Below, piece after piece: positions 12,080 through 56,155 of a stretch of DNA of 64,000 nt. The translations under genes and the position numbers were made by a program. This DNA comes from Azonexaceae bacterium. GTDB taxonomy: Bacteria > Pseudomonadota > Gammaproteobacteria > Burkholderiales > Rhodocyclaceae. Position 1 is the first letter of the stretch. Every line of letters begins with the position of its first letter. The DNA is taken from positions 78,992-142,991 of the forward strand of contig JAAXVL010000010.1 in NCBI GenBank assembly GCA_013335535.1, read 5' to 3'. A model generated the notes under the pieces. The model did no database searches, was not told where the DNA came from, and saw only the letters and a list, made by a program, of their open reading frames with translations.

Positions 12080-12107
12080 GATTTTTGTCTTATTCAGGTT
12101 GATGCGT

Positions 12108-12148
12108 GATTTCGTTTTTGGCCAAATTTTCCGGTCGACCGTGGAAGG
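12108..12148 (+). repeat. dispersed 40-bp repeat, copy 3
   Basis: gatttcgtttttggccaaattttccggtcgaccgtggaagg. Confidence 0.8.
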
Positions 12149-12212
12149 CGACCTCGATCCGATTATCGGCAAAGCGCGCGCGACCGACGACGAGGCAATC
12201 GCCAAATGAGCC

Positions 12213-12227
12213 TCATGAAAATCATGA
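12213..12227. promoter_or_regulatory. Fur-box-like palindrome TCATGAAAATCATGA upstream of the receptor gene
   Basis: About 10/12 match to the TGATAATCATTA Fur-box core, read by eye. Located between the two tandem repeat copies. Confidence 0.3.
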
Positions 12228-12235
12228 GACAGCGG

Positions 12236-12276
12236 GATTTCGTTTTTGGCCTTTTTTTTCCGGTTGACCGTGGCAA
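12236..12276 (+). repeat. dispersed 40-bp repeat, copy 4
   Basis: gatttcgtttttggccttttttttccggttgaccgtggcaa; same orientation as copy 3, 128 bp away. Confidence 0.85.
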
Positions 12277-12372
12277 TCGACTGCGCCGACACACCACCGA
12301 TTGCCACGCTCACCACTTCCCGCTAACGTGCGCCCTGAACATTTTTTCAACCTCGCACCAAAGGCTCCCAAT

Positions 12373-13561: not shown

Positions 13562-16500
13562 ATGACCAGCGGAGGATTTGTGGTTTCGTCATTACTCACC
13601 GTCAGTTGCATACGGCAGGCTTTCCGTAATGCCCTGCTCTGCATGCTGCTTGCGTCCTGCCCAGCCATTGCCCAGTACCTGCCCGAACCCGAGCCATACC
13701 CGGCCAGATCGATCACGGTCGTTCTCGGCGACGCCTCGCCGCCCTTCATCTTTCGCGACGCCAGCGGCCAGTTGCGCGGGGAATTGAAGGATTTATGGAC
13801 GCTGTGGGAAGAGCGCAACGGCATCAGGGTCAATCTGCTCTCTTCAGAACCTTCGCTGGCCTGGGAACGGATCAACTACGGCAAGGCCGATGTGATCGAC
13901 ATGATCACGGCCAGCCAGGAGCGCAAGACGACAGTTGTTTTCTCGCTGCCCTACCTGACGGTCAATGCCATGCTGTATTTCCACGAGAGCATCTCGGGGA
14001 TCGTCGATGCCGCGACGGCCAGAGGATTCCTGGTCGGCGTCGACGAGGGCGACGCCTGCGCGGACAAACTTCTGGCGGAAGGCGTCGTCAACCTCAAGAA
14101 ATACGCCAATCACGAAACGATGGTCAAAGCCGCGGTCAACGGCGACATTCACGTATTTTGTGGCCACGAGCCGCAAGTCAATTACTTCCTGGCCCGCGCC
14201 GGGAAAGCCCGGGAATTCCGGCACTCTCCGCCTTTGTATCAAGCCAGCATGCACTGGGCCGTGCGCAAGGGCGACGATGCGACGAGAGCGCTGGTGGCCG
14301 AAGGTTTTGCCAAAATCACGCCTGACGAGCGCCAGCAAATCACCCGGAAATGGACTGGTGCCTATATCCAGTCACCCGACACGCCACCCCGTCTCGATTT
14401 CGCCGGTTACATCCTGCTCGCCCTGACCGCGCTAGGCCTGTTGCTCCTCGGCTGGACCCGGATGCTCCAGCGGGAAGTGGCCTCCCGCACGGCCGACCTA
14501 AATCTCACCCTCGACTCCCTGCAAGCCGCACAGCAGGCCAGCGAAGCGGCGAACCAGCAACTGGCTGCCACCCTCGAAGCCATTCCCGACCTGCTGCTTG
14601 AAATTAGCGCGGATGGCCTGGTGCTCGACGCGCGCACCAGCCGGAAAACCCCGCTCGCTCCCTCGGCCCGCCAGCTGATCGGCCAGAACTATCACGCCTT
14701 CCTTCCGCTGGCAGCGGCGGCGACCGTTGACGAATCAATTGCTGCCGCGTCGCGCCATGGCAACGACTACGGTCGGACCTTTTCGCTGACCGACAGCGAA
14801 GGGGAACACTGGCTGGACTTCTCGGTAGCCCGAAAAAGAGCCCCGGGAACGGAGCAAGCGACATTCATCGTCATTTCACGCGACGTCACCGAGCACGTCA
14901 GATCGGAGCAGACAAGTCGTGCCGCCAGCCGCGCCCTGCGCCTTGTCTCCGACTGCAACATTGCGCTCTTCCGCGCCGAGGATGAAAAGTGGCTGCTCGG
15001 CGAAGTTTGCCGCCTGCTCTGCGAATCGGGCGACTACCGCATGGCCTGGGTCGGCTACGCCCGCAACGACGCCGAAAAATCGGTCACGCCGGTTGCCCAC
15101 TGGGGCTTCAATGACGGCTATCTCGACCACATCCGTATCTCCTGGAGCGATCTTTCCGAGTTCGGCCGAGGCCCGACCGGAACCGCCATTCGAACAGCCA
15201 CCTGCCAGGTCAACCAGGACTTCCACAACAACCCGAACATGGCACCGTGGCGGGCAACGGCGCTGGCCCGCGGCTACCAGTCGAGCATTGCCTTGCCGCT
15301 GCATGGCAAGGACCGCGTTCTGGGCGCCCTGACGATCTACTCTGCGGCCCCCGATGCCTTTGCCAGCGACGAAGTGGAACTGCTCGAAGAACTGGCCAAC
15401 AATCTGGCCTTCGGCATCATCACCATCGAAGAACGCCAGCGCCGCCAGAAAGCCGAGTCGGCGACGCAAGCCAAGAGCGAATTTCTGGCCAACATGAGCC
15501 ACGAAATCCGTACGCCGATGAACGCGATCATCGGCCTGGCCTATCTGCTGCGCAAAAAAACGACCAATGAGGAGCAGATCGACAAGCTCGAGAAAATCAG
15601 TCGTTCGGGCGAACACCTGCTGGCCATCATCAACGACATTCTCGACTTTTCCAAAATCGAGGCCGGCCAACTGATGCTCGAAAAACGTGACGTCGATTTG
15701 CGCAGCCTGGCCAGCAACATCGTGTCGATGCTGGCCGAACCGGCCCGGCTGAAGGGAATCCAGCTCAAAGTCGAACTCGACCAACTGCCCCGCAACGTGT
15801 GCGGCGATATCACGCGCCTGACCCAGGCCTTTCTCAATCTGGCCAACAATGCCGTCAAATTCACCACCCACGGCTCGGTCACGCTGCGCACGCTCAAGCT
15901 GGCCGAAACCGCCGACGCGGTCCACGTCCGCTTCGAGGTCATCGACACCGGCATCGGCATCCCGCCCGACACCATGGCGCGGCTTTTTGCCCCTTTTCAA
16001 CAGGCCGACAGTTCGACCACCCGAAAATTTGGCGGAACCGGGCTCGGCCTGGCCATCACCCGTCGCCTGGCTGAACTGATGGGCGGCGAAGCGGGCGCCG
16101 AGAGCACACCCGGCCGGGGCAGCACCTTCTGGTTTTCCGCCGTGCTCGAAAAGGCCGATGTCGCGGGCAAGACCTCAGCCACCAGCCAGCCGGGTGAATC
16201 GCCCAGCCACGTACTGGCCCGTGACTTTTCGGGAACCCGGCTGTTGCTGGTCGAGGACGACAGGATCAATCAGGAAGTCGGCCGCGAGCTGCTCGAAGAA
16301 GTCGGGATGGTCATCGATATCGCCGAAGACGGCGTCGAGGCCGTAGCCCGGATTCGCGACGCCCACCCCTGCCCCTACGCGCTGATCCTGATGGACATGC
16401 AGATGCCGCGCATGGATGGGGTGGAAGCGACGCGGCATATTCGCGCCCTGCCCGGCCGGCCCAGCGTGCCCATCATCGCCATGACGGCGAATGCTTTCAG

Positions 16501-16618
16501 CGAAGACCAGAATCGCTGCGTCAGTGCCGGCATGAACGACTATGTGACCAAGCCAGTCGATCCCGACGTGCTCTACGCCACCCTGCTCAAGTGGCTACGG
16601 CAGAAAAAAACGGACTGA
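13562..16618 (+). CDS. hybrid sensor histidine kinase (periplasmic family-3 SBP domain, TM, PAS, GAF, HisKA, HATPase_c, REC)
   Basis: H-box [13 protein letters not shown]; N/G boxes ([23 protein letters not shown]); receiver region DMQMPRMDG...TANA. The start is uncertain (13436, 13511 or 13562); 13562 gives a plausible signal/TM start. Confidence 0.85.
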
Positions 16619-16623
16619 CCGCA

Positions 16624-17532
16624 TCAGACCTGCGCGCACTCGGCCATCCAGCCCAGCGCCTTGACGCAGGCGCGGGCCATGGCCGGTGACAGGGCATCGT
16701 GGCCGGCGCTGGCCACCGGCACCCAGGCCGCTTCCGGCCAGGCCCGATGCAGGGTTTCGGCCGCAATCGGCGGGCAAACCGGGTCGGCCATGCCTTGAAC
16801 GATGACGGCCGGCAGATGGTGGATGCGGGCAATACCGGCCAGTAGCTGGCCGGGCACGAGAAAGCAGTCGCGCGTCAGGTAATGCATCTGGATGCGCGCC
16901 CGGGCCAGTTGCATCGCATCGAGCGTGCCGTCGAGCGGTGCCTTGCCGACCAGTTGGCGCTGATAGTTGAGCCAGAGCCGCGCCGTCTGCTGCGCCGTTT
17001 CCGGCTCATCGCCGAGGATGCGCCGGGCAAACGCCGTCAGCGGATGCGCCTGCTCGGCTGGCGGCAGCAAGCCGCCCAGACCACGCGCGTAGGCGACGAT
17101 TTCGTCGTGCGAGCCGAGAAAGATGCCGTGCATGATCAGGCCATACACGCTTTCGGGATAAATCTGGGCATAGGCCAGCGCCAAAAGGCTGCCCCACGAA
17201 CCGCCGAAAACGATCCAGCCGGGTATGCCGAGCGCCTCGCGCACGTAGTCGAGATCGGCCACCAGATCGAGCGTCGTGTTCGCCCCCAGCTCGCCACTGG
17301 GCAGGCTGCGCCCGGCGCCGCGCTGGTCGATCAGGACAACGCGAAAAATGGCGGGGTCGAACAGCCGGCGATGTTCGGTCAGGCAGCCACCACCCGGCCC
17401 GCCGTGCAGGAACAACACAGGAATCCCGTCAACCGGGCCGCATTCCTCGACGTGCAGGATATGCCCGTCGCCGACGGCCATCTGCCGGACGCAGCGCGGC
17501 CGGCACTCGGGAAAGAGATGATCGTCTGACAT
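16624..17532 (-). CDS. pip: proline iminopeptidase (alpha/beta hydrolase)
   Basis: LFLHGGPGGG, DQRGAGRS and GGSWGS nucleophile motifs. The start overlaps the response-regulator stop. Confidence 0.85.
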   Translation of the reverse strand: MSDDHLFPECRPRCVRQMAVGDGHILHVEECGPVDGIPVLFLHGGPGGGCLTEHRRLFDPAIFRVVLIDQRGAGRSLPSGELGANTTLDLVADLDYVREALGIPGWIVFGGSWGSLLALAYAQIYPESVYGLIMHGIFLGSHDEIVAYARGLGGLLPPAEQAHPLTAFARRILGDEPETAQQTARLWLNYQRQLVGKAPLDGTLDAMQLARARIQMHYLTRDCFLVPGQLLAGIARIHHLPAVIVQGMADPVCPPIAAETLHRAWPEAAWVPVASAGHDALSPAMARACVKALGWMAECAQV

Positions 17533-18179
17533 CAGGCCTCGATCAGTCCGTTGCGGACGGCGACCAGCGTCAGCTCGGCGGCGTTCTGCACGTTGAGCTT
17601 CTGCTTGATGTGATACAGATGGGTGCCGACCGTGCTCGGGCTCAGGCAGAAATCCTCGGCCACGTCATTGACTGAGCGGCCTTCGGCCAGCTTCATGAAG
17701 ACAGCCAGTTCCTTCTCGGTCAGCGTGTCGACCGGGCTGCTCGAGCCGGAAAGCTGGGCCAGCGCGACAGCCTGTGCCAGTTCCGGGTCGAGGTAACGAC
17801 GGTCACTGGCCACCTGGCCGACAGCGCGCAGAAATTCCTCCGGCGATGCCCGCTTGCACAGGTAACCACGGGCACCGAGGCGCAGGGCGCGCACCGGCAC
17901 GACGTCGTCGTTGTGTGCCGAAAGCATGAGCACCTTCGCCTTCGCCTCCCAGGCGATGAGCCGTTCGAGCGCGGCGAGACCGCCAATGCCGGGCATCGAG
18001 ACGTCCATCACGACGACATCCGGGTTGGTTTCGGCGTAGAGGCGGACAGCGCTTTCGCCGTTTTCGGCTTCGCCGACCACCGTCGCGCCAGCTCCTTCGA
18101 GCAGGCAACGGAAGCCAAGGCGAACCATCGCGTGGTCGTCGGCGAGCAGGACGCGCTTGCCGTGCAGTGCGTTGTTCAT
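17532..18179 (-). CDS. NarL/LuxR-family response regulator (REC plus HTH)
   Basis: VLLADDH...DVVVMDVSMPG receiver region and a C-terminal LTEKELAVFMKLAEGRSVNDVAEDFCLSPSTVGTHLYHIKQKL. Resembles ExaE/PedR2-type regulators found next to PQQ-ADH genes. Confidence 0.9.
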   Translation of the reverse strand: MNNALHGKRVLLADDHAMVRLGFRCLLEGAGATVVGEAENGESAVRLYAETNPDVVVMDVSMPGIGGLAALERLIAWEAKAKVLMLSAHNDDVVPVRALRLGARGYLCKRASPEEFLRAVGQVASDRRYLDPELAQAVALAQLSGSSSPVDTLTEKELAVFMKLAEGRSVNDVAEDFCLSPSTVGTHLYHIKQKLNVQNAAELTLVAVRNGLIEA

Positions 18180-19585
18180 GCGAATTCCTCCGGTGAAGGT
18201 TGAAGCGCTGCATCCGGCAGGCGGGCAAAAATGCGGAAGCCGCCGCCGGCCGGTTGTTCGAATTGAAGATCGCCACCCAGCGCGGCAATGCGCTCGGCCA
18301 TGCCCGCCAGGCCAAGGCCGCAGCCGGGTTGCGTCGAAGGCTGGCCGGAACGGCCGCGACCGTTGTCGGACAGCGTCAGCTGCAGGCAGCCAGCCACACG
18401 GCTGATGGCCAGATCGACCTGCGAAGCGTGGGCGTGGCGCACGACATTGGTCAGGCCTTCCTGAACGATACGGACGACGGCCATGGCCAGATCGTCGGCG
18501 ACGGGCTGGGGGCCGATGGCGAGCTGGCTGTTGACGGTGATGTCCGGGTGCTGCACCTGCCAGCCGGCGAGCTGGCGCTCGAGCCTCACGGACAGACTGT
18601 TGCCGGCCACCGGGCGCAGGCGATGCAGTATATTGCGCACGCCGTCCTGCATTTCGCCGGTGACAGCGACGATGCCCTGAGCCGGAATGTGCAGCGATGG
18701 CGCGTCGCCGGTACGCTGGACGATGGCGCCGGCCAGCGCGCGGACAGCGGTGATGCCCTGAGCCAGTTCATCGTGCAGTTCGCGGGCGATGACCCGGCGC
18801 TCCTCTTCGAGGCGATCATGCATCTGGCGGTCGACTTCGCGGGCGCTTTCGAGGCGGACGTTGTCGTCCACCGCCTCGCCCAGCCGGTCGGCCATGCCGT
18901 TGAAGGCGCGCGAAATGCGGCCGAGTTCGGGCGTCGCGAAGACCGGCAGACGGGTGTCGAAACGGCCGCGCGCCGTGCGGTCAAGCGCGCGCATGATCTG
19001 GGCAAGCGGGCGCAGGGCGCGCCCCAGCGCCGTGCGCGTCGCCACGAACAGCAGGCAAAGCAGGGCCAGCGCCCAACCCGCCATGGCCGCCAGATCGTCC
19101 CAGGCGTCGAGAATGGCGCGCGAATCATCAGGATGCAAAGTCAATGTATAGCCCTCGACAGCCAGCGTGCGCGCCGGCAATTCAGTAGCGAGCAGCCCGG
19201 CAAACCAGCCCGGCACGGTGCGCCCGGCCTTGTAGCTCGGACCGGGCGAGCGGTAGATGGATGCACCGGCCGCCGAGCGGATTTCCAGCTCGTTGGCGCG
19301 GACCCGGCCGATGGCGCGCACCACGCCGAGCAGGCGCTCGCCGCGCACAATCGGCGGCACGTCCTGGATCTCACCGATGACGGCCTTGAGCCATTGCTCG
19401 GAGACCCGCGTCGCCGCCTCGACCTCCTCGTGAATGGCATTGCGCGTGGCGTGCAGCCAGAAGCCGGCCATGACGACGAGCAGGCTGGCGGCTAGGGCGG
19501 TGAGGACGAGGCCGACACGGGTGTGGAGGCTCAAGCGCCGGCTTCCACGGTCAACCGGAAAAAATGGCCGAAATTTGAATTTCAT
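18176..19585 (-). CDS. NarX-type sensor histidine kinase (TM, HAMP, HisKA_3, HATPase_c)
   Basis: H-box ARELHDELAQ plus C-terminal ATPase motifs (DNGRG, GCGLGLAGM). ATG 19585 overlaps the receptor stop as ATGA, like every other junction in this operon, and then includes repeat copy 5 in frame. The alternative is TTG 19534. Confidence 0.8.
   Translation of the reverse strand: MKFKFRPFFPVDRGSRRLSLHTRVGLVLTALAASLLVVMAGFWLHATRNAIHEEVEAATRVSEQWLKAVIGEIQDVPPIVRGERLLGVVRAIGRVRANELEIRSAAGASIYRSPGPSYKAGRTVPGWFAGLLATELPARTLAVEGYTLTLHPDDSRAILDAWDDLAAMAGWALALLCLLFVATRTALGRALRPLAQIMRALDRTARGRFDTRLPVFATPELGRISRAFNGMADRLGEAVDDNVRLESAREVDRQMHDRLEEERRVIARELHDELAQGITAVRALAGAIVQRTGDAPSLHIPAQGIVAVTGEMQDGVRNILHRLRPVAGNSLSVRLERQLAGWQVQHPDITVNSQLAIGPQPVADDLAMAVVRIVQEGLTNVVRHAHASQVDLAISRVAGCLQLTLSDNGRGRSGQPSTQPGCGLGLAGMAERIAALGGDLQFEQPAGGGFRIFARLPDAALQPSPEEFA
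19543..19583 (-). repeat. dispersed 40-bp repeat, copy 5
   Basis: ttccacggtcaaccggaaaaaatggccgaaatttgaatttc; lies between the receptor stop and the first TM helix of the kinase. Confidence 0.85.
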
Positions 19586-21909
19586 TTTTCGCCTGCACCG
19601 CCAAAGGCGTAGCGCACGCCAATCCACGCAGCCCGCGGGGCGCCCGGAGCGACAAAGGTTTCCCGATGCCAGTTGTCAGGGTTGGTCTGAAAACCACCAA
19701 CGAAGGGATTCTCGGCCAGTGCGCCGGCTGTGGCGTAGCGCTTGTCGAAGACGTTGTTGACCTTGGCGAACATCTGCCAACCGCCGCCCAGCTTGGCCTC
19801 GGCATTGAGGTTGAGGATGGCGTAGCCGGGAATGCGCCCCGGGCCCTCGAAGGTACGCGTGTTGGCATTGACGTCGGTAAAGGTGCCACTCTGGTGCTGG
19901 TTGTTCTCGTTGCCGCGCACGTACTGGCCGGAAAAGGCCTGCACGTCGCCGCCGACGCGCAGCCAGTCGGTGGCGCGCCAGGCCAGGCCGAACTTGAGGC
20001 TGTGCTGCGGCAGGCCGGGAATGCGGTTGCCCTTTTTCACGAGAATCTCATCATCCTGGCCAGCCCCCGTGCATTCGGCAGTCGTGCCGCGTGTGCTGTT
20101 GTTGGCACCGAGCAGACAGGCATCGGAACGGAACGTGGCCTGCAGCCAGGTGTAGTTGGCGTACCAGTCGACGCGATGGAGGTTGCCGTTGAGGCCAAGT
20201 TCGAGGCCCTGGCGCAGGGTCTTGCCGTAGTTGGTGAAGTAACCGGCGCTGGTCGACGTCCCGACGAACAGGATGTCGTCGCTGCTCATGGTGCGGAACA
20301 GGCCGGCGTTCCAGTTCGCGTCCCCCAACAACTCACCGGCCAGCTTGCCGCGCAGGCCAGCTTCGAGCGTGCGGGCGACGACCTGCTTGAGGTAGGGGTC
20401 GGACGCCATCGAATTGGGCAGGGTGCACGGGTTGGCCGGATCGGCGCAGCCCAGTTCGATTGGCGTCGGCACACGGTTGCCCTGGCTGAAGCCGGCATAG
20501 GCGTTGAGCGCCGGGACGATCTGCCAGCTCAGGCCAAGCGCCGGGTTGAGCTTGCGGTAATGGTGGTCGCCGTCGAGATTGGGCGCCGTGCGGGTAAGCT
20601 CGTCGAAGGTCATGACGTGGCTCAGGTTGTAGCGCGCCGAGCCGGTCAGGTGCAGGTTGTGCAACAGCGACCAGGTGTCGGTGACGAACAGGCTGGCGGT
20701 GCTGGTCTTGCCGTGGATCTGGTTCTCGACGGCCAGCGCCTGCAAGTTGCTGATGCCGCGGCTGTCGTCAAGTTCGCCGAGCTCCTGCGTCTGCTGAAAA
20801 TGAATGCGTGACTGATCGTAGGAGGCGCCAACCGCCAGCTGATGCTGCTGGCCGCTGAAATTCCACTGGCCGGCGACGCCCGTGCCGTGCTGCGAAGTCC
20901 TGGTCCGGTTATTCGCGCCGCTTGGCGTCGTCGGATCGCTTGCCCAATCGTTCTCGTAGTCGTCGTTCATGTCGCCGTTCAGCGTTCGCGTCTTGGTCCG
21001 GCGGTGATAGACGCTGCCGCTCAGGCTCTGCGTGTCGCTGAGCCAGAGTTTGCCATTGAGGGCGAGCTGGGTGAGGTCATTACGCGTCTCGTCGGGGTGT
21101 GTGAAGATATTTTCACGACGCTGGGCGAGCAGCGACTGCGGCACGAGGCCGTTGCCGATCAGGCGGCTGCGCGCCTTGGTCAGCGTCAGGTCGGCCTCGC
21201 CGGCAGCATTGCGGAAGGAGAGTTTGCCAAAAAACTGTTTGACGTCGGACGGTGAATGATCGCGCCAGCCGTCTTCGCGGAACCAGTCGCCGGCACCGTA
21301 CCAGCCGATGGTGCCGTTGTTGCCGCCGTATTCAAATTCGGTGTTGGTTCGGTTGAAACTGCCGCCCGAAACCTCGAGCTTGCCGCCCGGGTGCGAGAAG
21401 CCGCTCTTGGTCCGCATGGCCAGCGCGCCGCCCAGAGTGTTGAGGCCAAAGGCCGGGTTGGAACCGGGAACGAGGTCGATGCCGGCAATGGCCGAATGGG
21501 GTATCAGATCCCAGTTCACCGTGTCACCGAAGGGCTCGTTGATCCGCACGCCATCGACGTAGACCGACAGCCCCTGCGCCGTGCCGAGCAGCGGCGACGC
21601 GGTGAAACCACGGTAATTGAGGTCGACCTGATAAGGATTGCCCTGAATTTCATTGACCGTGACCGAGGGCATCTGGCGCACCATCTGTTCGGCGATGTTG
21701 AGGCTTTCGATTTCTTCTAGGCGCTGATCGTCGAAGGACTGGACATTGGCCGGCAGATGCAGGCGCGGCACACCGATGCCGGAGAGCGGCGTGGTGCCGA
21801 CGACTTCGACGGTCGCCGTGGTGACCACCGATTCGGCGGCGAAGGCCGGCGCGAAGGCGGCGGACAGGGCGATGGCGATCAGCGAGCGGGCTGGGGTTTG
21901 TCTCTTCAC
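19582..21909 (-). CDS. TonB-dependent outer-membrane receptor
   Basis: GTG start overlapping the tonB stop. Signal peptide, plug motifs (VEVVGTTPL, NYRGF, GVRINEPFGD) and a large beta-barrel with terminal aromatic-rich strands. Confidence 0.85.
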   Translation of the reverse strand: MKRQTPARSLIAIALSAAFAPAFAAESVVTTATVEVVGTTPLSGIGVPRLHLPANVQSFDDQRLEEIESLNIAEQMVRQMPSVTVNEIQGNPYQVDLNYRGFTASPLLGTAQGLSVYVDGVRINEPFGDTVNWDLIPHSAIAGIDLVPGSNPAFGLNTLGGALAMRTKSGFSHPGGKLEVSGGSFNRTNTEFEYGGNNGTIGWYGAGDWFREDGWRDHSPSDVKQFFGKLSFRNAAGEADLTLTKARSRLIGNGLVPQSLLAQRRENIFTHPDETRNDLTQLALNGKLWLSDTQSLSGSVYHRRTKTRTLNGDMNDDYENDWASDPTTPSGANNRTRTSQHGTGVAGQWNFSGQQHQLAVGASYDQSRIHFQQTQELGELDDSRGISNLQALAVENQIHGKTSTASLFVTDTWSLLHNLHLTGSARYNLSHVMTFDELTRTAPNLDGDHHYRKLNPALGLSWQIVPALNAYAGFSQGNRVPTPIELGCADPANPCTLPNSMASDPYLKQVVARTLEAGLRGKLAGELLGDANWNAGLFRTMSSDDILFVGTSTSAGYFTNYGKTLRQGLELGLNGNLHRVDWYANYTWLQATFRSDACLLGANNSTRGTTAECTGAGQDDEILVKKGNRIPGLPQHSLKFGLAWRATDWLRVGGDVQAFSGQYVRGNENNQHQSGTFTDVNANTRTFEGPGRIPGYAILNLNAEAKLGGGWQMFAKVNNVFDKRYATAGALAENPFVGGFQTNPDNWHRETFVAPGAPRAAWIGVRYAFGGAGEK

Positions 21910-22646
21910 GTTGTTTTTTTAAGTTTGTAATTGATCGGTACGACGACTTGAATTTCGTTGCTGTCGAGCGACTCGGGCAGCGGCGGCAAGCCGGCCAGCG
22001 CTTCGAGCATGGCCAGCGCGTGCTGGTCGAGCACCTCGAAACCGCTCGAACGGTCGAGGGCGATGCCGAGCAGGTTGCCCTTGCGGGCGACTTTCAGGCG
22101 CAGGCGAACCTCGCCTTCCCAGCCGCGCATGGCGGCGATGCGCGGGTATTCCTGATGGCGGGCGAGCAGTTCGCCGAGGCGCTGGCGGTAGCTGTCGAGG
22201 ATTTCGCTTTGCGGGCGCTGCGGGGCGACGGCGGGCGCCGGGCGGGCTGTTTCGGCAACGGGTGCCGCGGGTGCCGCGGGTGCCGATGCTAGCTTGTCGG
22301 AAGACGTTGCGACTGTCGACGACGCCACGGGTGCCGGCACATTGGCCGGCCCGGCAGTCTGCGTCACGCGCGGAGCCGGCCGCTCCGTGCGAATGGCTTC
22401 CTGCCGGGCCTTCTGGGGGACGGTTGCCGGCGCAGGGGCGGCAGCGGCAACGGGTCCGGATTCGGTAACGGCGACCAGGCGGATTGACGCCAGGATGGGC
22501 GGCAGGCTGATCGGGCCGTTCTTGCGTTGCCACGAAGTTACGGCGAACAGCGTGGCGTGGAGCAGGATGGACAAGGCCAGAATTGCCCAGAATTTCCGGT
22601 TGACCGTGGGAACCGCCGGCATATCGATGAGGGCCGCCGCCATCAT
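21906..22646 (-). CDS. tonB: TonB energy-transducer protein
   Basis: N-terminal TM helix with the SxxxH motif (ALSILLHA), a Pro/Ala-rich spacer, and a C-terminal TonB domain (YPRIAAMRGWEGEVRLRLKV...). ATGA overlap with the upstream MBL gene. Confidence 0.8.
   Translation of the reverse strand: MMAAALIDMPAVPTVNRKFWAILALSILLHATLFAVTSWQRKNGPISLPPILASIRLVAVTESGPVAAAAPAPATVPQKARQEAIRTERPAPRVTQTAGPANVPAPVASSTVATSSDKLASAPAAPAAPVAETARPAPAVAPQRPQSEILDSYRQRLGELLARHQEYPRIAAMRGWEGEVRLRLKVARKGNLLGIALDRSSGFEVLDQHALAMLEALAGLPPLPESLDSNEIQVVVPINYKLKKTT
22581..22612 (+). repeat. dispersed repeat, right-half copy inside the tonB coding region
   Basis: aattgcccagaatttccggttgaccgtgggaa; read on the minus strand it encodes TVNRKFWAI of TonB. 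Confidence 0.65.
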
Positions 22647-23581
22647 GGTTTTGCCCCCAATGCTTCCTGCTCGGCCGCCGGAAAAAGATGGCCAACCGAA
22701 CGGCGATATTCGCTGGCGGCGACCGGCAGGCGAGCAAACTCGGCGGGCAGCGGGCGAGCCAGCACGTCGTTCATGTCCAGCCCGGCTTTCGCCGCGTCGC
22801 GCATGGCGGCGGTCAGCCAGGTCAGCCAGGCGCGGGTCTGGCGAATCGGCGCGGCATCGCTGGTCGGCGCGCCGTGGCCGGGCAGCAACGCCTTGAAGCC
22901 GGCTTCGCGGGTCACCCCTTCGAGCTGGTCGAGCGCCTTGAGCCAGTGGGCGACGTCCGCGTGCGGCGTGGTCGGGGCGCGGCCGTTGAAGGCGAGATCG
23001 CCGGCGAAGACGACGCCGCTCGTTTCATCGACGATGACCAGGTCGGCGCCGGTATGGCCGTCGAGCCCGACGAGGCGCAGGCTCCGACCAGCCACCTCGA
23101 GGCGGCCGGCATTCAGCGTCTTGCCGGGCAGCTGAACTTCGGTGCCCTTCATCCAGTCGCCGCTCATGCGGAAGAGGTTCTCGGCGAAGGCGTTGCCATC
23201 GGCGGCGATGCCGTTACGCGTCTCGGCCAGCGCAGCGATGGGCACATCGGCAAAAGCCTGGTTGCCGAGAAAATGGTCGGGATGGTGGTGGGTGTTGATG
23301 ACCAGCGCGATGGGCTTGTTCGTCACGGCGGCAATGGCCCGGCGCATCTGCTGGCCGTAGCGCAGCGACGGGCCGCTGTCGATGACGATGACGCCCTGCG
23401 CAGCGACGATGAAGGCGGTGTTGACGATATTGCCGCCGTTGTCGGTGGTGAAATCCTCGGTCTTGCCGATGAAGGCGTAGACGTCCCTGGCGATCTCGAC
23501 CGGGCTCAGGCGATAGTCGAAATCGACCGCCCCGAGCTGGCCGGCGACGAGCATGAGTAACGCGCAGAGCAGGCGTTTCAC
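22643..23581 (-). CDS. periplasmic metallo-beta-lactamase-fold hydrolase (recalled family: quinoprotein relay system zinc metallohydrolase)
   Basis: HHHPDH zinc motif and a signal peptide. The family name is from memory of TIGRFAM-style PQQ-linked families and needs an HMM check. Confidence 0.7.
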   Translation of the reverse strand: MKRLLCALLMLVAGQLGAVDFDYRLSPVEIARDVYAFIGKTEDFTTDNGGNIVNTAFIVAAQGVIVIDSGPSLRYGQQMRRAIAAVTNKPIALVINTHHHPDHFLGNQAFADVPIAALAETRNGIAADGNAFAENLFRMSGDWMKGTEVQLPGKTLNAGRLEVAGRSLRLVGLDGHTGADLVIVDETSGVVFAGDLAFNGRAPTTPHADVAHWLKALDQLEGVTREAGFKALLPGHGAPTSDAAPIRQTRAWLTWLTAAMRDAAKAGLDMNDVLARPLPAEFARLPVAASEYRRSVGHLFPAAEQEALGAKP

Positions 23582-24348
23582 TGCGCAATCCTCGCTGTGA
23601 AGGCATTGCCGTTGTTGTCGCGGCCGCTCGCTTCGACCGGGCCGTCGGCGCTGGTCCGTTGCAGGGTGAATACCGGATTTTCGCTGACCGGCTCATAGGT
23701 CTGGACGCGCATCAGACGCTTGCCAGCGGCGTCGGCGAAGTTGATTTCCTCGAGAAAGAAGGCTGGCGTGCCGGCAACCAGGCCGGTATCCATCGGATGC
23801 ACGATGCGCATGCGCAGCCGGCCGGCGTTCGGGCCTTCGCTCCACTGGCGGCCGCTCACTTCGTTGAGGCGCTGCTGCCACTCCTTCGAACCACCGGCCG
23901 CCGACGGGGCCGTGCAGCCGCCGCCCACGGTGTTCACCCAGGTGCCGCCGACATGCCAGACGCCATCGGCCGTGCGCACGGCAGCGCGGACCGGCGTCGA
24001 TTGCTGCAGCTTGACGCGAAAGCCGAGGAAAGCCGGGGCATCTTCAGGAAAGAAGCGCAGCACCTGCACAATCGGATTGAAATCGGCAAAGACGACGACT
24101 TCGACAACCCCGGGCAGCGCCGTTGCATCGACGGTGACCGGCACCTGCATCGGATTTTCAGCCGTCGACGGGGCAACCACCTTGACGCGCGGGTCGAACA
24201 ACACCGGCGCGCCGGCCAGGAAAGCTTTCTGCATTTCCGACCAGCGCGCCGAGGCGAGCGGATCGCCGTTCTCGCGCAAGGCGGCAGCTTCGGCCGGGGG
24301 CATCAATGCCGCCAGGGCAATCGCCGCAATGGTCAGTGGGTATTTCAT
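23578..24348 (-). CDS. SoxYZ-like fusion protein (recalled family: quinoprotein dehydrogenase-associated SoxYZ-like carrier)
   Basis: Signal peptide and an internal GGGC motif (VNTVGGGCTAPS) resembling the SoxY carrier cysteine. The C-terminal half is SoxZ-like by composition. Confidence 0.55.
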   Translation of the reverse strand: MKYPLTIAAIALAALMPPAEAAALRENGDPLASARWSEMQKAFLAGAPVLFDPRVKVVAPSTAENPMQVPVTVDATALPGVVEVVVFADFNPIVQVLRFFPEDAPAFLGFRVKLQQSTPVRAAVRTADGVWHVGGTWVNTVGGGCTAPSAAGGSKEWQQRLNEVSGRQWSEGPNAGRLRMRIVHPMDTGLVAGTPAFFLEEINFADAAGKRLMRVQTYEPVSENPVFTLQRTSADGPVEASGRDNNGNAFTARIAQ

Positions 24349-24394: not shown

Positions 24395-24410
24395 TGCAAA
24401 GCGCGTGCCA
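24395..24410 (-). promoter_or_regulatory. sigma-54 (-24/-12) promoter for the 7-gene minus-strand operon
   Basis: Minus strand reads TTGGCACGCGCTTTGCA (TGGCAC-N5-TTGCA), about 50 nt upstream of ATG 24348. Confidence 0.65.
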
Positions 24411-24506
24411 AGAACCGCCGGTTTTGCCGAATCGCTGATCTGGCCAGCAAAGGCGCTGTGGCGCCGCACACTGTCACAGCACCTGATCAACCGGTGTGTG
24501 CAACTT

Positions 24507-24513
24507 TGGAGCA
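24507..24513. promoter_or_regulatory. TGGAGCA half-site (candidate enhancer/UAS element) between the divergent sigma-54 promoters
   Basis: The same heptamer forms a perfect palindrome at 26718-26738 and recurs at 35973-35979, each about 100-190 bp upstream of a sigma-54 promoter. Confidence 0.3.
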
Positions 24514-24623
24514 GGTGGTGACAATTGGAACAGCGCTCCTGCCAACTGCCCGGCCCGGCAAAAAATCCGCGAAATGCCGGCTTCAGCCCCGCCAACAGGA
24601 GCGCCGGGGGTTTCGGCCCGGCT

Positions 24624-24639
24624 TGGCACAGCCCTTGCA
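24624..24639 (+). promoter_or_regulatory. sigma-54 promoter upstream of the PQQ alcohol dehydrogenase gene
   Basis: TGGCACAGCCCTTGCA, a perfect TGGCAC-N5-TTGCA, about 130 nt upstream of ATG 24770. Confidence 0.7.
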
Positions 24640-24769
24640 GATTGTGTCCCCGCCAGCGAGCCGGTTCAGGGAATGGAGGTGGCTCGCCAGCATGTCATTC
24701 CACGCAGGCAGACCGTGTTCAGCACGGTTTTTCTGCGGAGGAACCATCGGATAATCAAGGAGACAATCC

Positions 24770-26551
24770 ATGCATAGTCATACCCCTTTCAAGCGGAGAG
24801 TCGTTACCCTCGCGCTTCTGACGGCAGCGGCATTTGCCGGCAGCCCGGCCAGCGCCGTCGTCACTGACGCCGACATCCTCAACGACGCCACGACCAAGGG
24901 CGACGTCGTCAGCTTCGGCCTCGGCACCCAGGGTCAGCGCTTCAGCCCGTCCACCCAGATCAACGCCAAGACGGTGAAGAACCTGGTCCCGGCCTGGTCG
25001 ATGTCCTTCGGCGGCGAGAAGCAGCGCGGCCAGGAATCGCAACCGGTCATCCACAACGGCAAGATGTTCGTCACCGCTTCCTACAGCCGCCTGTTCGCCA
25101 TCGACGCGAAGACCGGCAAGAAGCTGTGGAAGTACGAGCACCGCCTACCGGACGGCATCATGCCGTGCTGTGACGTGATCAACCGCGGCGCTGCCCTGTA
25201 CGACAACCTCGTCATCTTCGCGACGCTGGATGCCCAGCTCGTCGCCATGAACCAGGACACCGGCAAGGTCGTCTGGAAGGAAAAGCTCGGTGACTACGCT
25301 GCCGGCTACTCCGCTTCCGCTGCCCCGATCATTGCCAAGGGCAAGCTGATCACCGGTATCTCCGGTGGCGAATTCGGCGCCGTCGGCCGTATCGACGCCC
25401 GCGATCCGAAGACCGGCAAGCTGCTGTGGACGCGTCCGACCGTCGAAGGCCACATGGGCTATCGTTTCGACGCCGATGGCAAGCAGATCGAAAACGGCAT
25501 CTCCGGCACGACCAACGCCACCTGGACCGGCGACCTCTGGCAAACCGGCGGCGCAGCCACCTGGAACGGCGCCACCTACGATCCGGAAACCAACCTGATC
25601 TTCGCCGGCACCGGCAACCCGGCCCCGTGGAACAGCCACCTGCGTCCGGGCGACAACCTGTTCTCGTCCTCCACCGTGGCCATCGACGCCGACACCGGCA
25701 AGATCGCCTGGCACTACCAGAACACCCCGCACGACGGCTGGGACTTTGACGGCGTGAACGAATTCGTTTCCTTCGATTACAAGGATCCGAAGACGGGCAA
25801 GATCATCAAGGCCGGCGGCAAGGCCGACCGTAACGGTTTCTTCTTCGTGAACGACCGCACCAACGGCAAACTGCTCAACGCCTTCCCGTTCGTCAAGAAG
25901 ATCACCTGGGCTAGCGGCATCAACCTGGAAACGGGCCGTCCGAACTACATCGAAGAAGGCCGTCCGGGTGACCCGACCGCCAGCACCGATGGCAAGAAGG
26001 GCAAGGTCGTCTTCTCGGCTCCGTCCTTCCTCGGCGGCAAGAACCAGCAGCAGATGGCCTACTCGCCGCAGACCGGCCTGTTCTACGTGCCGGCCAACGA
26101 GTGGTCGATGGACATCTGGAATGAGCCGGTTTCGTACAAGAAGGGCGCGGCCTACCTGGGCGCCGGCTTCACCATCAAAGCGCTCAACGACGACCATATC
26201 GGCGTCCTGCGCGCTGTCGATCCGGCCACCGGCAAGATCGTCTGGGAAAACAAGAACTACGCCCCGCTCTGGGGTGGCGTCCTGACGACCGCTGGCGGCC
26301 TGATTTTCTACGGCACCCCGGAAGGCTTCCTGAAGGGTGTTGATGCCAAGACCGGCAAGGAACTGTGGTCCTTCAACGTCGGTACCGGCATCGTTGCACC
26401 GCCGGTCAGCTGGGAACAGGATGGCGAGCAGATGATCGCCGTGACGACTGGCTGGGGCGGCGCTGTTCCGCTCTGGGGCGGCGATGTGGCCAAGCGCGTG
26501 AACTTCCTCGAACAGGGTGGTTCCGTCTGGGTCTTCAAGCTGCACAAGTAA
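24770..26551 (+). CDS. PQQ-dependent alcohol dehydrogenase, methanol/ethanol family (type I quinoprotein), lanthanide-type active-site signature
   Basis: Signal peptide, vicinal-disulfide motif MPCCDV, W-motif propeller repeats, and the catalytic region [13 protein letters not shown] with D325 and D327. AAGGAGA RBS. Confidence 0.9.
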
Positions 26552-26592
26552 TCAATGCTCTGTCTTTCGGGCGCTTCGGCGCCCGATTGAAA

Positions 26593-26625
26593 CGGCGCGA
26601 TGACTTCGGTCCTCGCGCCGTTTTT
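26593..26625 (+). terminator. rho-independent terminator after the ADH gene
   Basis: CGGCGCGA-12 nt-TCGCGCCG followed by TTTTT. Preceded by a second small hairpin GGGCGC-TTCG-GCGCCC at 26569-26584. Confidence 0.65.
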
Positions 26626-26660
26626 CATTTTTGGGCGATTTTTCCGGTTGACCGTGGCAA
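26623..26660 (+). repeat. dispersed 40-bp repeat, copy 7
   Basis: tttcatttttgggcgatttttccggttgaccgtggcaa. Confidence 0.85.
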
Positions 26661-26717
26661 ACGCGCTGACTTCAATAAAGGCCAGCAGCGCGAGACTGTT
26701 CGACTTTGCACCACCCT

Positions 26718-26738
26718 GTTGCTCCATTCTGGAGCAAC
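26718..26738. promoter_or_regulatory. perfect palindrome GTTGCTCCA-TTC-TGGAGCAAC (candidate activator-binding site)
   Basis: Read directly from the sequence; about 190 bp upstream of the sigma-54 promoter at 26916. Confidence 0.35.
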
Positions 26739-26915
26739 TCTGCTCGTCGCCCGCAGATGGCGCCCGTGAGCCCGGCTCCGCGCAGGCAAGCCGGCGTCCG
26801 GCAAGGCTCGCTGGCCCTCGCCGGCAGGGTCGCAGCCGTCTCGCCGGGCCATCGACATGCCGCATAACGGGTCAAAACCGGTGCAGCCGCTGAATTATTC
26901 GGCAAAGCCCCTACC

Positions 26916-26931
26916 TGGCGCGGGATTTGCC
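26916..26931 (+). promoter_or_regulatory. sigma-54-type promoter upstream of the cytochrome c / Cache genes
   Basis: CTGGCGCGGGATTTGCC has the GG-N10-GC spacing and one mismatch in each element; about 118 nt upstream of ATG 27050. Confidence 0.55.
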
Positions 26932-27049
26932 TTTAGGGACTCAACGTCGTCAAGGAATTCGAAAAATCCTGGGCAATTTAGCCTTACATTTTTAATTGGG
27001 CCGCTCGGCATTATTTTTGAGCCGGCTTTTTAACCTTTGGGAGTAGAAC

Positions 27050-27427
27050 ATGTCATTGCTACGTCAACTGATCATCACCGCCGCACTCGCTGCCGCAGCG
27101 CAAACGGCCTGTGCCGATGCCGCCAACGACGAAAAGATGAAAAAACTGGCCGCCTACGCCGGCTGCTTTACCTGCCACACCATCGAGCACAAGGACAACC
27201 CGGATGGCAGCAAGCCGATCGGCCCGGCCTGGAAGGATGTGGCCGAGCAGTACCGCGGCAAACCCGGCGCCACCGATTTCCTGACCCGCGTCGTCCAGGA
27301 AGGCTCGAATCCCTATTCGAGCCACTGGAAGAACCGCGTTACCGGCATCGCCATGCCGCCGAACGCCGTCGCCATCAGCGCCAACGACACGCGCCAGCTC
27401 GTCTCGTGGATACTGTCGCTGAAATAA
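27050..27427 (+). CDS. mono-heme c-type cytochrome (c551/c552-like)
   Basis: Signal peptide, CFTCH heme motif and GPAWKDVAEQY, related to the GPAYKDVAAKY of the cytochrome at 38250. Confidence 0.8.
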   Translation: MSLLRQLIITAALAAAAQTACADAANDEKMKKLAAYAGCFTCHTIEHKDNPDGSKPIGPAWKDVAEQYRGKPGATDFLTRVVQEGSNPYSSHWKNRVTGIAMPPNAVAISANDTRQLVSWILSLK

Positions 27428-27485
27428 GCTGCTGCACCTTCATGCCGCGCCGGCTTGCCGGCCAACCCTTTTGGAGTTTCCGCGT

Positions 27486-28340
27486 ATGAGCACTTTCTCC
27501 CTCGCCCTTCGCCTGGCCGGCCTTCTGCTGGCGCTTGCTTGCGGCGTCGCAACGGCCGGCGAGCGCGCCACGCCGCGCGAAGCCCGCGCCTTTTTCGACC
27601 AGGCGGTGAAATACCTGCAGGCCAACGGCCCCGAAAAGTCATGGGCAGCCTTCAGCAATCGCAAAGGCCCGTTCGTCAAGAAGGACCTCTACGTTTACGT
27701 CATCGACCGGCAAGGCACCTACATCGCCAACGGTGCGTCGCCGGAGGCGCTGGTCGGGATGAACGTGCTCGACAGCGTCGATGCCTCGGGCACCCCCCTC
27801 TTCCGGCACATGATCGCTGTCACCGAGAAGCAGACCGAGGCGCGCATCCGCTACGTCTGGCTCAACCGCAAGACCAACCACGTCGAGCCGAAGAATGCCT
27901 GGCTGCACCGCGAAGGGGACTACATCCTCGGCGTCGGCTACTACTCTCCGCACGCCACAGCGCTCGATGCCCAGAAGCTCCTCGGCGATGCCGTCGCCTT
28001 CGCCATCAAGAACGGGATGAGCGTAGCCACCAAGGCTTTCAACGAGACCAAGGGAGCCTTTGTGCGCGACGATCTCTACGTCTTTGCCGTCAATCTCGAC
28101 AGCGGAAAATTCGAGGCGCACGGCGTGAACCCGGCCTGGACCGGAACCGATGCGCTGAGCCTCCACGATGTCGAAGGTCACGCCCTGATTCAGGACATGA
28201 TCGACCAGGCGAAGAGCAAGGGCACCGGCGTCGTCGATTATGTCTGGCGCAATCCGGTCACCAATGCTGTCGAGCGCAAGCGCTCCTTCATCCAGCGCGT
28301 CGATAACAGCCTGCTCGGCGTCGGTTACTACCTGGACTGA
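27486..28340 (+). CDS. secreted protein with two tandem single-Cache (sCache_2-like) domains and no output domain
   Basis: Start at ATG 27486 (MSTFSLALRLAGLLLALACG). There are two internally repeated halves, each with KG.F.(K/R)DLYV(Y/F).., Y(V)W.N(R/P).T and LGVGYY motifs. Confidence 0.7.
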   Translation: MSTFSLALRLAGLLLALACGVATAGERATPREARAFFDQAVKYLQANGPEKSWAAFSNRKGPFVKKDLYVYVIDRQGTYIANGASPEALVGMNVLDSVDASGTPLFRHMIAVTEKQTEARIRYVWLNRKTNHVEPKNAWLHREGDYILGVGYYSPHATALDAQKLLGDAVAFAIKNGMSVATKAFNETKGAFVRDDLYVFAVNLDSGKFEAHGVNPAWTGTDALSLHDVEGHALIQDMIDQAKSKGTGVVDYVWRNPVTNAVERKRSFIQRVDNSLLGVGYYLD

Positions 28341-31907: not shown

Positions 31908-32460
31908 CCATCCACTGCAAAGGCAGGTCGACATAGGCCGCCGCCACTTCGGCAGCACGCGTGAAATCGCCGGAACAGGGCGTGCGGATCGCCGTCATGA
32001 ACTTATGGCTGCTGTGAAAGATTTCCCGGATCACGGCAGGATTGTCGCCAAAGCACTTGCTGATCATCGGTTCCCAGGTCAGCGCCCAGTCCTCGAGCAG
32101 AAAATAGGCACCCTTTTCGAGTTCCTCCATGAATTTCTCGTAGCCGATCAGCATGACGATGCAGTTCTGGCCCTGAGTACGCAGGGTGTGGTGTTTCTCG
32201 AGAATGCTGTCGATCTGCGGATGGCAGCAGCCGTAAAAAACCACCGTATCGCGCCCCTGCAACTCGTCGTTGGCCAGCGTCGCGTTGAGCTGCTCGGACA
32301 GCTTGCCCAGGTAGTTGTGCAGCGCCGAATCGAGAAACTGGGTTTCGACCTGCCAGCCGTTCTTCCTGACCAGCCAATCGACCTCCTTGTGCAGGATGCC
32401 GCAACCGACAATGGTCAACGGCTTGTCAGCGGCAACGACGGGGGGCATGACGGTTTTCAT
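31837..32460 (-). CDS. DUF1638-family protein
   Basis: Start at ATG 32460 overlapping the stop of the upstream gene (ATGA). [13 protein letters not shown] and [11 protein letters not shown] motifs fit DUF1638 as I recall it. The longer ORF-track N-terminus overlaps the upstream gene. Confidence 0.65.
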
Positions 32461-34150: not shown

Positions 34151-34164
34151 GTTGGCTCCTGACG

Positions 34165-54725: not shown

Positions 54726-54727
54726 CG

Positions 54728-55994: not shown

Positions 55995-56042
55995 AATGTC
56001 TCCTTGTTTGATTGCGGGGTACTGCCTTTGTGACAAGGCATC

Positions 56043-56058
56043 TGCAAACCCTGTGCCA
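56043..56058 (-). promoter_or_regulatory. sigma-54 promoter for the cytochrome c550 / SBP / propeller / b561 operon
   Basis: Minus strand reads CTGGCACAGGGTTTGCA, about 50 nt upstream of GTG 55994. Confidence 0.7.
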
Positions 56059-56139: not shown

Positions 56140-56155
56140 TGGCACGGCATTTGCT
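56140..56155 (+). promoter_or_regulatory. sigma-54 promoter upstream of the activator gene itself
   Basis: TGGCACGGCATTTGCT, about 105 nt upstream of ATG 56261. Confidence 0.6.

Follow-up and report, generated by a model that had tools for sequence, protein, structure and literature searches.

Several described systems resemble one part or another of the locus considered here, a seven-gene operon divergent from a gene for an alcohol dehydrogenase (ADH) dependent on pyrroloquinoline quinone (PQQ), in a stretch of 64,000 nucleotides (hereafter the window) from an Azonexaceae bacterium of the Dechloromonas/Azonexus group (contig JAAXVL010000010.1 of assembly GCA_013335535.1, positions 78,992 to 142,991). 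LutH (MexAM1_META1p1785), of the lut cluster with its lanmodulin, is an outer-membrane TonB-dependent transporter (TBDT) genomically tied to a lanthanide-dependent PQQ dehydrogenase. In a July 2026 preprint (10.64898/2026.07.10.737718) lanthanide TBDTs were reported to have PqqU as their best match in the PDB while the PQQ-binding residues are absent, to cluster with five experimentally supported lanthanide importers, to have pqq genes in their neighbourhood and to stand beside a small (~120 aa) periplasmic cargo protein. PqqU/YncD itself (E. coli; P. aeruginosa PA2289) scavenges a cofactor for periplasmic quinoproteins; its PQQ importer signature consists of Y/F/W99, R304 and R365; K274 and R536 are further PQQ-contact residues, and metal co-transport has been proposed for some PqqU variants (Munder et al. 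2025, PMC12124388). In P. putida the ped cluster holds an adjacent pair of proteins from the families TIGR04557 and TIGR04558 (PP_2677/PP_2678), beside a lanthanide-type PQQ ADH. According to a 2026 review (PMC12997753), PP_2677 and PP_2678 (and META1p1703-1705) are conserved with lanthanide-type ADHs, and transposon sequencing with random barcodes (RB-TnSeq) without lanthanides gave minimal phenotypes for these relay genes; the hypotheses listed there for the pair are disulfide maturation, cofactor stabilisation and protection of PQQ from sulfur nucleophiles. The same review finds no LutH homologue in P. putida and states as an open question how lanthanides cross its outer membrane for PedH-type enzymes. 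Sensing is represented by PedS2/PedR2 (P. putida) and EraSR/ExaDE (P. aeruginosa), each a HisKA_3 kinase with a LuxR/NarL regulator beside a PQQ ADH. Clusters annotated on Sphingobium indicum pSRL2 and Novosphingobium ES2-1 p1, not described as a system, hold pedF, a substrate-binding protein, a YVTN propeller and a D-x-D ADH along with the same two relay families.

The operon of the window encodes, in order of transcription, a SoxYZ-like carrier, a metallo-beta-lactamase (MBL) hydrolase, TonB, a TBDT (the operon receptor), a sensor histidine kinase, a NarL-type response regulator and a prolyl-aminopeptidase-like hydrolase (Table 1). All of its components fall into families that are known or were defined computationally, and the operonic combination is undescribed in the searchable literature. 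We interpret it as a composite accessory operon for a PedH-type lanthanide/PQQ ADH that would join probable lanthanide uptake, sensing and the relay pair, and assign this interpretation, which rests on sequence comparison, a probability of about 0.58. An earlier sequence-only reading of the stretch had proposed a metal/cofactor acquisition-and-sensing system, a combination it knew no description of. Comparative genomics supports the proposal in outline and the searchable full-text literature yielded no description of the combination; three points have to be amended, as the operon receptor does not appear to be a PQQ importer, a PqqU-type gene lies separately, and the activator would be an enhancer-binding protein (EBP) encoded elsewhere.

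The seven open reading frames (ORFs) were delimited from the ORF listing and their translations; they run on the minus strand from 24348 to 16624, away from the ADH gene, and the ORF coordinates give junction overlaps of 4, 4, 4, 4, 4 and 1 nt in that order. The kinase start was placed at the ATG at 19585 rather than the GTG at 19627, its ATGA overlapping the stop codon of the receptor gene. Inside the operon no sigma-70-like promoter was found on the operon strand and terminator-like sites were not above chance; an Rfam scan of the window returned no matches. These are seven translationally coupled genes behind a conserved sigma-54 promoter, divergent from the ADH. The seven minus-strand genes with 1-4 nt overlaps that had been read from the letters agree with the ORF coordinates, and all seven family calls made at that time hold in NCBIfam and Pfam hidden Markov model searches, the peptidase falling just below the TIGR01249 cut-off.

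The divergent enzyme is, by its signature residues, a lanthanide-type (PedH/ExaF) PQQ ADH, as had also been suggested before. It scores 775 bits against TIGR03075 (methanol/ethanol family), among solved structures it is closest to 6zcv/6zcw, the quinoprotein ethanol dehydrogenase of P. putida (847 bits), and in the alignment its D-x-D position reads WDFDG, identical to PedH, against WDFSG in the Ca-dependent ExaA and WDYDG in XoxF.

The intergenic region between the two transcription units measures 421 bp and holds two perfect -24/-12 elements, one per direction. The pattern TGGCAC-N5-TTGCW occurs four times in the window, with 0.13 occurrences expected and none of 100 shuffles reaching four, and all four matches fall in two divergent intergenic regions. 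The operon-side element, with GG at -24, GC at -12 and canonical spacing, recurs as TGGCA[CT]-N5-TTGC in 51 of 53 related loci with a variable 5-nt spacer, located 57-68 nt upstream of the carrier gene in 46 of the 51 and up to 224 nt upstream in the rest, which upholds the sigma-54 operon promoter of the sequence-only reading. A strict match to the ADH-side element was present in 43/53 related loci, 102-147 nt (mostly ~145) upstream of the ADH start. A conserved block in the centre of the region is a candidate enhancer for the sigma-54 activator; neither inspection nor a search for inverted repeats in the ADH-operon intergenic region revealed a motif common to both sigma-54 regions. NarL-type regulators are unable to activate sigma-54 promoters, for which an AAA+ EBP is needed; the regulator of the operon therefore cannot drive its promoter and a separate EBP encoded elsewhere would be required. 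The only sigma-54 EBP in the window is 46% identical, over its full length, to the EBP beside the ADH-receptor-pqq cluster of B. multivorans, and it is a candidate activator of both the ADH and the operon promoters. The ADH mRNA leader (24640-24772, plus strand) forms two strong hairpins on folding (-58.5 kcal/mol; z = -4.8 relative to shuffles). The first (~24655-24690) falls in a block conserved across relatives, and the second has a short stem followed by UUUUU; they match no Rfam family and may form an attenuator or a stability element.

Conservation was examined by a scan of one genome per species, from which the best 80 loci, all of Rhodocyclales, were retained; the 59 with at least 8.2 kb downstream were informative. 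Receptor and carrier homologues occur in Dechloromonas, Azonexus, Ferribacterium, Quatrionicoccus and Zoogloea. The exact seven-gene order was found at 26 of the 59 loci (23 with the divergent ADH verified), and a further 4 have a PqqU-like receptor gene appended to the seven genes. At 7-8 loci (7 in the count of architectures) a PqqU-like gene replaces the peptidase, and 4 keep the receptor in other orders (regulator-terminal, TonB undetected, or no kinase/regulator); altogether the receptor is kept in 41/59. The receptor is lost, with TonB and the remaining operon genes kept, at 8 loci, and only the SoxYZ-MBL pair is present at 10, all Zoogloea-like and in a non-PQQ context. A WD[FY]DG ADH stands at 54 Rhodocyclales loci; taken with the 26/59 loci of exact architecture, this bears out co-conservation with D-x-D ADHs, the original proposal having been made to depend on co-conservation with PQQ dehydrogenases.

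The operon receptor has Plug and beta-barrel domains (Pfam), and its only PDB matches at E<=1e-5 are YncD/PqqU 6v81 and 9c4o. At the positions of PqqU Y99/K274/R304/R365/R536 it carries L, N, T, F/L and A/gap, all five mismatched in both alignments, which vary at the last two; four of these five PQQ-contact residues are positively charged in PqqU, and the operon receptor is without that positive pocket. All 13 clade members examined fail the PQQ signature. The receptor shares with the lanthanide TBDTs of the preprint both traits, PqqU as best PDB match and absence of the PQQ residues, and is likened to them by these traits.

The genomic contexts of receptor homologues were taken from an annotated collection of plasmids and secondary replicons, used for wide taxon sampling, and the annotated neighbourhood of the receptor was read at a locus with 87% identity (P0004). 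The B. multivorans homologue (38%) is divergent from a WDYDG ADH and beside a sigma-54 EBP and pqqABCDE; in Variovorax (41%) the order is ADH, high-potential iron-sulfur protein, receptor, with Ped-type ATP-binding cassette (ABC) and propeller genes and pqqE near; in P. largidicola (37%) the receptor gene lies beside pqqBCDE and a HisKA_3 kinase; and in M. nodulans (32%) it lies beside a NarL-type regulator, with a lanmodulin homologue (133 bits to 6MI5) two genes away. Ped-like clusters in which a clade member is found at most 3 kb from a SoxYZ-like carrier and metallohydrolase 1 occur in Sphingobium (2 records), Novosphingobium (2 records) and Ralstonia, these being 5 of the 22 plasmid records with the carrier. 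Every ADH beside these receptor/relay modules is of the D-x-D type, and the receptor is repeatedly paired with HisKA_3/NarL genes (Ideonella, M. nodulans, P. largidicola). On this comparative evidence the operon receptor probably imports a lanthanide or a lanthanide-chelate, which is the best-supported substrate. A parallel with LutH is plausible: the operon receptor shows the traits reported for that class, PqqU as best PDB match and no PQQ-binding residues, and a homologue stands near lanmodulin in M. nodulans. Unlike the lut cluster, the window operon has no Lut-type ABC transporter, lanmodulin or small cargo protein, brings its own TonB and two-component system, and is associated with a PedH-type rather than an XoxF-type enzyme. 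A stronger claim, membership of the LutH family, was dropped, the Methylobacteriaceae proxies available for it (P0280, P0354) lying outside lut clusters and not being the published LutH reference.

Several observations weigh against this assignment. The closest homologue in the plasmid collection, that of Ideonella (51%), is accompanied by a 'nickel transporter', a cytochrome c peroxidase and ApbE/FMN (flavin mononucleotide)-binding proteins and has no PQQ enzyme beside it; the Caballeronia and Methylocalor homologues are likewise without PQQ context, and the relatives of the M. nodulans receptor in M. extorquens (P0280) and M. salsuginis (P0354) lie outside lut clusters. A small periplasmic cargo protein was not found beside the operon receptor, there being no room for a small cargo ORF in the operon because its gene junctions overlap; small ORFs beside the receptor homologues are unrelated to one another, and lanmodulin is nearby only in M. 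nodulans. At 8 related loci the operon is kept although the receptor has been lost, the SoxYZ-MBL pair occurs without any receptor in Azospirillum and in P. putida (PMC12997753), and the Zoogloea pair has no nearby ADH. The candidate EBP lies 32 kb from the operon and shows no synteny with it in the relatives examined, for which reason it stays a candidate only.

Part of this evidence would fit a module for TonB-dependent uptake and sensing of a different metal, free or chelated (Cu, Ni, Fe or Mn), comprising TonB, receptor, kinase and regulator and merely recruited beside the ADH, where it might provide electron-transfer partners with metal or have nothing to do with the ADH. The Ideonella receptor, with a homologous kinase and regulator next to the proteins just listed, speaks for such a module, as do an M. 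salsuginis subfamily member beside VIT1, cytochrome b561 and Czc-type efflux genes, and the Variovorax receptor, which is followed by ApbE and a 4Fe-4S protein. Against it, members of the clade in four orders repeatedly adjoin D-x-D ADHs, pqq operons, SoxYZ-MBL pairs or lanmodulin, and in the window receptor and relay pair are transcribed together, their promoter sharing its type with that of the ADH. We therefore regard a module for another metal as unlikely, while keeping lanthanide uptake as the preferred function.

The relay pair that heads the operon belongs to two families defined computationally. The carrier scores 220.8 bits against TIGR04557 (cut-off 140) over the full model length, contains PF13501 (SoxY) and PF08770 (SoxZ) domains, has a signal peptide read from its translation, and carries a G142-G143-G144-C145 motif invariant in 18 homologues. 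Its partner scores 427.6 bits (cut-off 300) against TIGR04558, 'quinoprotein relay system zinc metallohydrolase 1', and its translation shows an intact HxHxDH metal site (HHHPDH) and a signal peptide. The 'quinoprotein relay' named in the sequence-only reading is accordingly the right family context, both models being passed above cut-off. The true SoxY and SoxZ models give the carrier 63.2 against a cut-off of 125 and 28.9 against 76 bits, and its cysteine lies within the protein (GGGC motif, residue 145 of 256), not on the C-terminal GGCGG arm of a true SoxY. No biochemical function for the relay-pair proteins was found in the searchable literature. In the window and 54 related loci the carrier stands beside a PQQ ADH and the partner metallohydrolase. 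In Zoogloea (L060-L078, e.g. L076 9947-11658) the relay pair has no PQQ dehydrogenase within 10 kb, so that physical linkage to the presumed client is not universal; its neighbours there, glmS, katG and a TetR-like regulator, give no functional clue. In Ralstonia RRA.1 (L089 10726-12346) a second MBL-like gene, 28% identical to the MBL of the window, directly follows metallohydrolase 1.

The pair of the window resembles that of P. putida in family, adjacency and position beside a lanthanide-type PQQ ADH; unlike the latter, it leads a sigma-54 operon on into TonB, TBDT, two-component system and peptidase, and no rhodanese (PP_2666-like) gene is near it. With the pSRL2 and ES2-1 p1 clusters it shares the carrier, metallohydrolase 1 and an immediately adjacent receptor of the same clade; in those clusters, which also hold a rhodanese and a porin, the receptor gene is convergent, not co-transcribed, and TonB, two-component system and peptidase are all lacking. 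After the relay pair of Novosphingobium ES2-1 p1 (L088 10608-14899) there are two adjacent receptors, neither with the PqqU signature. The novelty lies in the linkage: in Azonexaceae the relay pair is co-transcribed with genes for uptake and sensing, and in two other orders it adjoins the same receptor clade.

A bolder proposal is that the pair constitutes the periplasmic half of a lanthanide supply line for PedH/ExaF-type enzymes and not a sulfur-cycle relic. The carrier and hydrolase may take or release the cargo of the TBDT, for example by hydrolysing a lanthanophore or by handing metal or cofactor over to the apo-enzyme; this would explain why the pair occurs only with D-x-D dehydrogenases, and beside the receptor clade in Rhodocyclales, Sphingomonadales and Ralstonia. 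We offer it as a speculative and rather improbable extension of the lanthanide interpretation. Still more doubtful is a periplasmic system of sulfur or thiol chemistry in which the carrier and hydrolase would serve to detoxify sulfur nucleophiles or to carry thio-adducts derived from aldehydes, a related small molecule would enter through the receptor, and lanthanide supply would play no part. Homology of the two proteins to SoxY/SoxZ and SoxH argues for it, as do the rhodanese gene adjoining the pair in Sphingomonadales and the hypotheses of disulfide maturation and PQQ protection from sulfur adducts in the review (PMC12997753); the true SoxY and SoxZ models nevertheless remain far under their cut-offs (63 against 125 and 29 against 76), neither a rhodanese nor another sox gene was found in the window or the 80 related loci, and the homologue contexts lend TonB-dependent import of a sulfur compound no support.

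Import of PQQ appears to be the task of a different gene. A second receptor, encoded 4.3 kb downstream of the operon and on its strand, carries F, K, R, R and R at the five PQQ-contact positions, in agreement with the published signature, is 40% identical to E. coli PqqU (491 bits) and scores 640 bits against NF041535, under the equivalog cut-off of 1200; the operon receptor reaches 108 bits with this model and 23% identity to E. coli PqqU. The listed ORF of the second receptor, 9995-12316 (minus strand), has a spurious N-terminal extension of 78 codons. A PqqU-like gene directly follows the operon genes in 17/59 related loci. An operon receptor without the PQQ signature next to a neighbour with all of it therefore appears to mean two cofactors and two importers, a pattern that suggests a neat split of tasks in which each cofactor has its own receptor. 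The PqqU/YncD precedent that had been invoked for the operon receptor fails at all five contact positions and fits instead the gene downstream. The reported absence of PQQ biosynthesis genes stands, no pqqB/C/D/E homologue being found in the window. Among the related loci, L044 has a genuine PqqE gene (15533-16705; 493 bits with TIGR02109, whose cut-off is 381) at a distance of 110 nt beyond the peptidase gene, followed by unrelated genes (serC and others); PqqE homologues are also downstream in L048, L056, L026, L041 and L038, four of these six loci being loci without the operon receptor, and 1.39 Mb of related loci contained no detectable pqqB, C or D.

It is highly improbable, on these grounds, that the operon receptor imports PQQ or a PQQ-metal complex and that the whole operon is a PQQ-scavenging unit. 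PqqU/YncD does have the same fold and is the nearest solved structure, indeed the only PDB match at that threshold, the window contains no pqq biosynthesis genes, and metal co-transport by some PqqU variants has been proposed by Munder et al.; set against this are the failure of the published three-residue signature (L/N/T/F/A for Y99/K274/R304/R365/R536), the 108 bits against 1200, an identity of 23% compared with 40% for the neighbour with all five residues, and the coexistence of the two receptor types in the same loci. Equally hard to credit is a chance juxtaposition of relay pair, uptake/sensing module and housekeeping peptidase, each expressed independently: the first two are found apart elsewhere, and the last gene and the receptor are each dispensable in some relatives, yet all 6 of 6 junctions overlap, internal promoter and terminator signals are not above chance, and the exact order recurs in 26 species-level loci with receptor identities of 64-89%, one 43% outlier excepted.

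TonB matches TIGR01352 (61 bits) and PF03544, and is kept in the 8 related loci that have lost the receptor from the operon. The periplasmic domain of the kinase has no Pfam match; kinase and regulator are closest to the receptor-associated pair of Ideonella (38% and 41% identity, respectively), and this nearness to receptor-associated pairs suggests that they sense the substrate of the transporter. The regulator beside the Azospirillum ADH is only 31% identical. The likeness to PedS2/PedR2 noted from the sequence holds at class level, that is, a HisKA_3 kinase and a NarL/LuxR regulator beside an ADH, as for EraSR/ExaDE; unlike those pairs, that of the window is inside a sigma-54 operon, after the receptor gene. 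The peptidase, judged from its homology, is a generic pip-like gene and a variable member of the operon. It scores 226.1 bits against TIGR01249, below the cut-off of 259.75 (the L044 orthologue passes at 275.9), is ~40% identical to ordinary pip genes (~210-220 bits), and is absent from 12 of the 49 informative loci extending beyond SoxYZ-MBL; 10 of these 12 have a PqqU-like gene at the end, in 8 directly after the regulator. A neighbouring hydrolase in B. multivorans (40%, 128 bits) was considered as a conserved partner and rejected because ordinary pip genes match better (~210-220 bits).

From these elements a working model of the operon can be drawn. An EBP, for which the GAF-PAS protein at 56261-58246 is the candidate, would switch on the ADH and the operon together. 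The dedicated TonB would energise the operon transporter, bringing a lanthanide, free or chelated, into the periplasm, and a separate PqqU-type transporter would import PQQ, so that the exported apo-ADH would receive both cofactors there. The HisKA_3 kinase and NarL-type regulator would sense a periplasmic signal, most likely the substrate of the transporter, and adjust other promoters. The SoxYZ-like carrier and the SoxH-like zinc hydrolase would work through the invariant cysteine of the carrier, probably forming and hydrolysing a thiol adduct and thereby maturing, protecting or repairing PQQ or the vicinal-disulfide site, which is the least certain step. The prolyl aminopeptidase would be a loosely attached cytoplasmic passenger.

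Genes for electron transfer accompany the ADH. The small c-type cytochrome downstream of it, kept beside the ADH in several relatives, is a possible electron acceptor; the ~500 nt between the ADH stop codon and this gene (26552-27049) contain no credible ORF, and a 159-aa ORF annotated after the ADH in L081, low-complexity and unconserved, was treated as spurious. A second sigma-54-driven quinoprotein accessory cluster encodes a PedF cytochrome c-550 (~55994-55566; TIGR04494, 210.8 bits, cut-off 122) and a TIGR03866-like YVTN propeller (212.6 bits). The likely electron acceptor of the ADH is therefore encoded 30 kb away yet similarly driven. A second divergent pair of perfect sigma-54 promoters (56043-56058, minus; 56140-56155, plus) lies between the PedF cluster and the GAF-PAS EBP gene. 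In many relatives (L007-L045, ~7200-7680, plus) a PedF-like cytochrome ~40% identical to the PedF of the window is convergent with the 3' end of the ADH gene, a position taken in the window by the different 125-aa cytochrome c. An exported protein with two Cache-type sensor domains only and no kinase or transducer module (27471-28340, plus), found near the ADH in many relatives at 69-89% identity, may be a periplasmic ligand-binding partner for a flanking hybrid kinase. Further along, a corrinoid methyltransferase module (31837-35769, minus) consists of a DUF1638 protein, an MtaA/CmuA-family methyltransferase, a B12-binding corrinoid protein and a RACo-type reductive activase, and adjoins a hybrid histidine kinase (29373-31958).

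Table 1. Coordinates of the operon, its promoters and associated genes, numbered from the first nucleotide of the window (TM, transmembrane segment; HTH, helix-turn-helix)
Feature	Position	Strand	Length	Characteristics
PqqU-type receptor	9995-12082	-		Probable start ATG 12082
Prolyl-aminopeptidase-like alpha/beta hydrolase	16624-17532	-	302 aa	Cytoplasmic; GGSWGS nucleophile elbow; variable last gene
NarL/LuxR-type response regulator	17532-18179	-		REC and GerE HTH domains
Sensor histidine kinase	18176-19585	-	469 aa	Two TM, periplasmic domain, HAMP, HisKA_3, HATPase
TonB-dependent outer-membrane transporter	19582-21909	-	775 aa	PqqU-related clade without PQQ-binding signature
TonB	21906-22646	-	246 aa	N-terminal anchor with S-x-x-x-H, Ala/Pro-rich linker, TonB C-terminal domain
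MBL hydrolase	22643-23581	-	312 aa	Periplasmic; SoxH-like zinc metallo-beta-lactamase fold; HHHPDH
SoxYZ-like carrier	23578-24348	-	256 aa	Fused SoxY-SoxZ; periplasmic, signal peptide; GGGC145
Operon sigma-54 promoter	24395-24410	-		TGGCACGCGCTTTGCA; -12 end 46 nt upstream of carrier ATG
Candidate enhancer (upstream activating sequence)	24493-24533			Conserved central block of intergenic region (conservation profile, 44 aligned regions)
ADH sigma-54 promoter	24624-24639	+		TGGCACAGCCCTTGCA
PedH-type PQQ ADH	24770-26551	+	593 aa	WDFDG; vicinal Cys-Cys
Small c-type cytochrome	27050-27427	+	125 aa	Periplasmic; CFTCH; PF00034
Second quinoprotein accessory cluster	53260-56058	-		Sigma-54-driven; PedF cytochrome c-550, SBP_bac_3 protein, YVTN beta-propeller, cytochrome b561
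Sigma-54 EBP (candidate activator)	56261-58246	+		GAF-PAS-AAA+-HTH (Pfam domains); GAFTGA motif

Lanthanide-dependent PQQ dehydrogenases are widespread outside methylotrophs, and the operon places a candidate importer with a TonB of its own, a sensor pair and the relay proteins under a single promoter beside such an enzyme. It occurs in cultivable genera (Dechloromonas, Azonexus, Zoogloea ramigera) and offers a handle on lanthanide supply in non-methylotrophs. If the interpretation is true, lanthanide-uptake biology would extend to denitrifying and wastewater Betaproteobacteria, and TIGR04557 and TIGR04558 would gain their first functional context; cultivable Dechloromonas and Azonexus would allow a direct genetic test of PedH-type lanthanide uptake and of the function of these two families.

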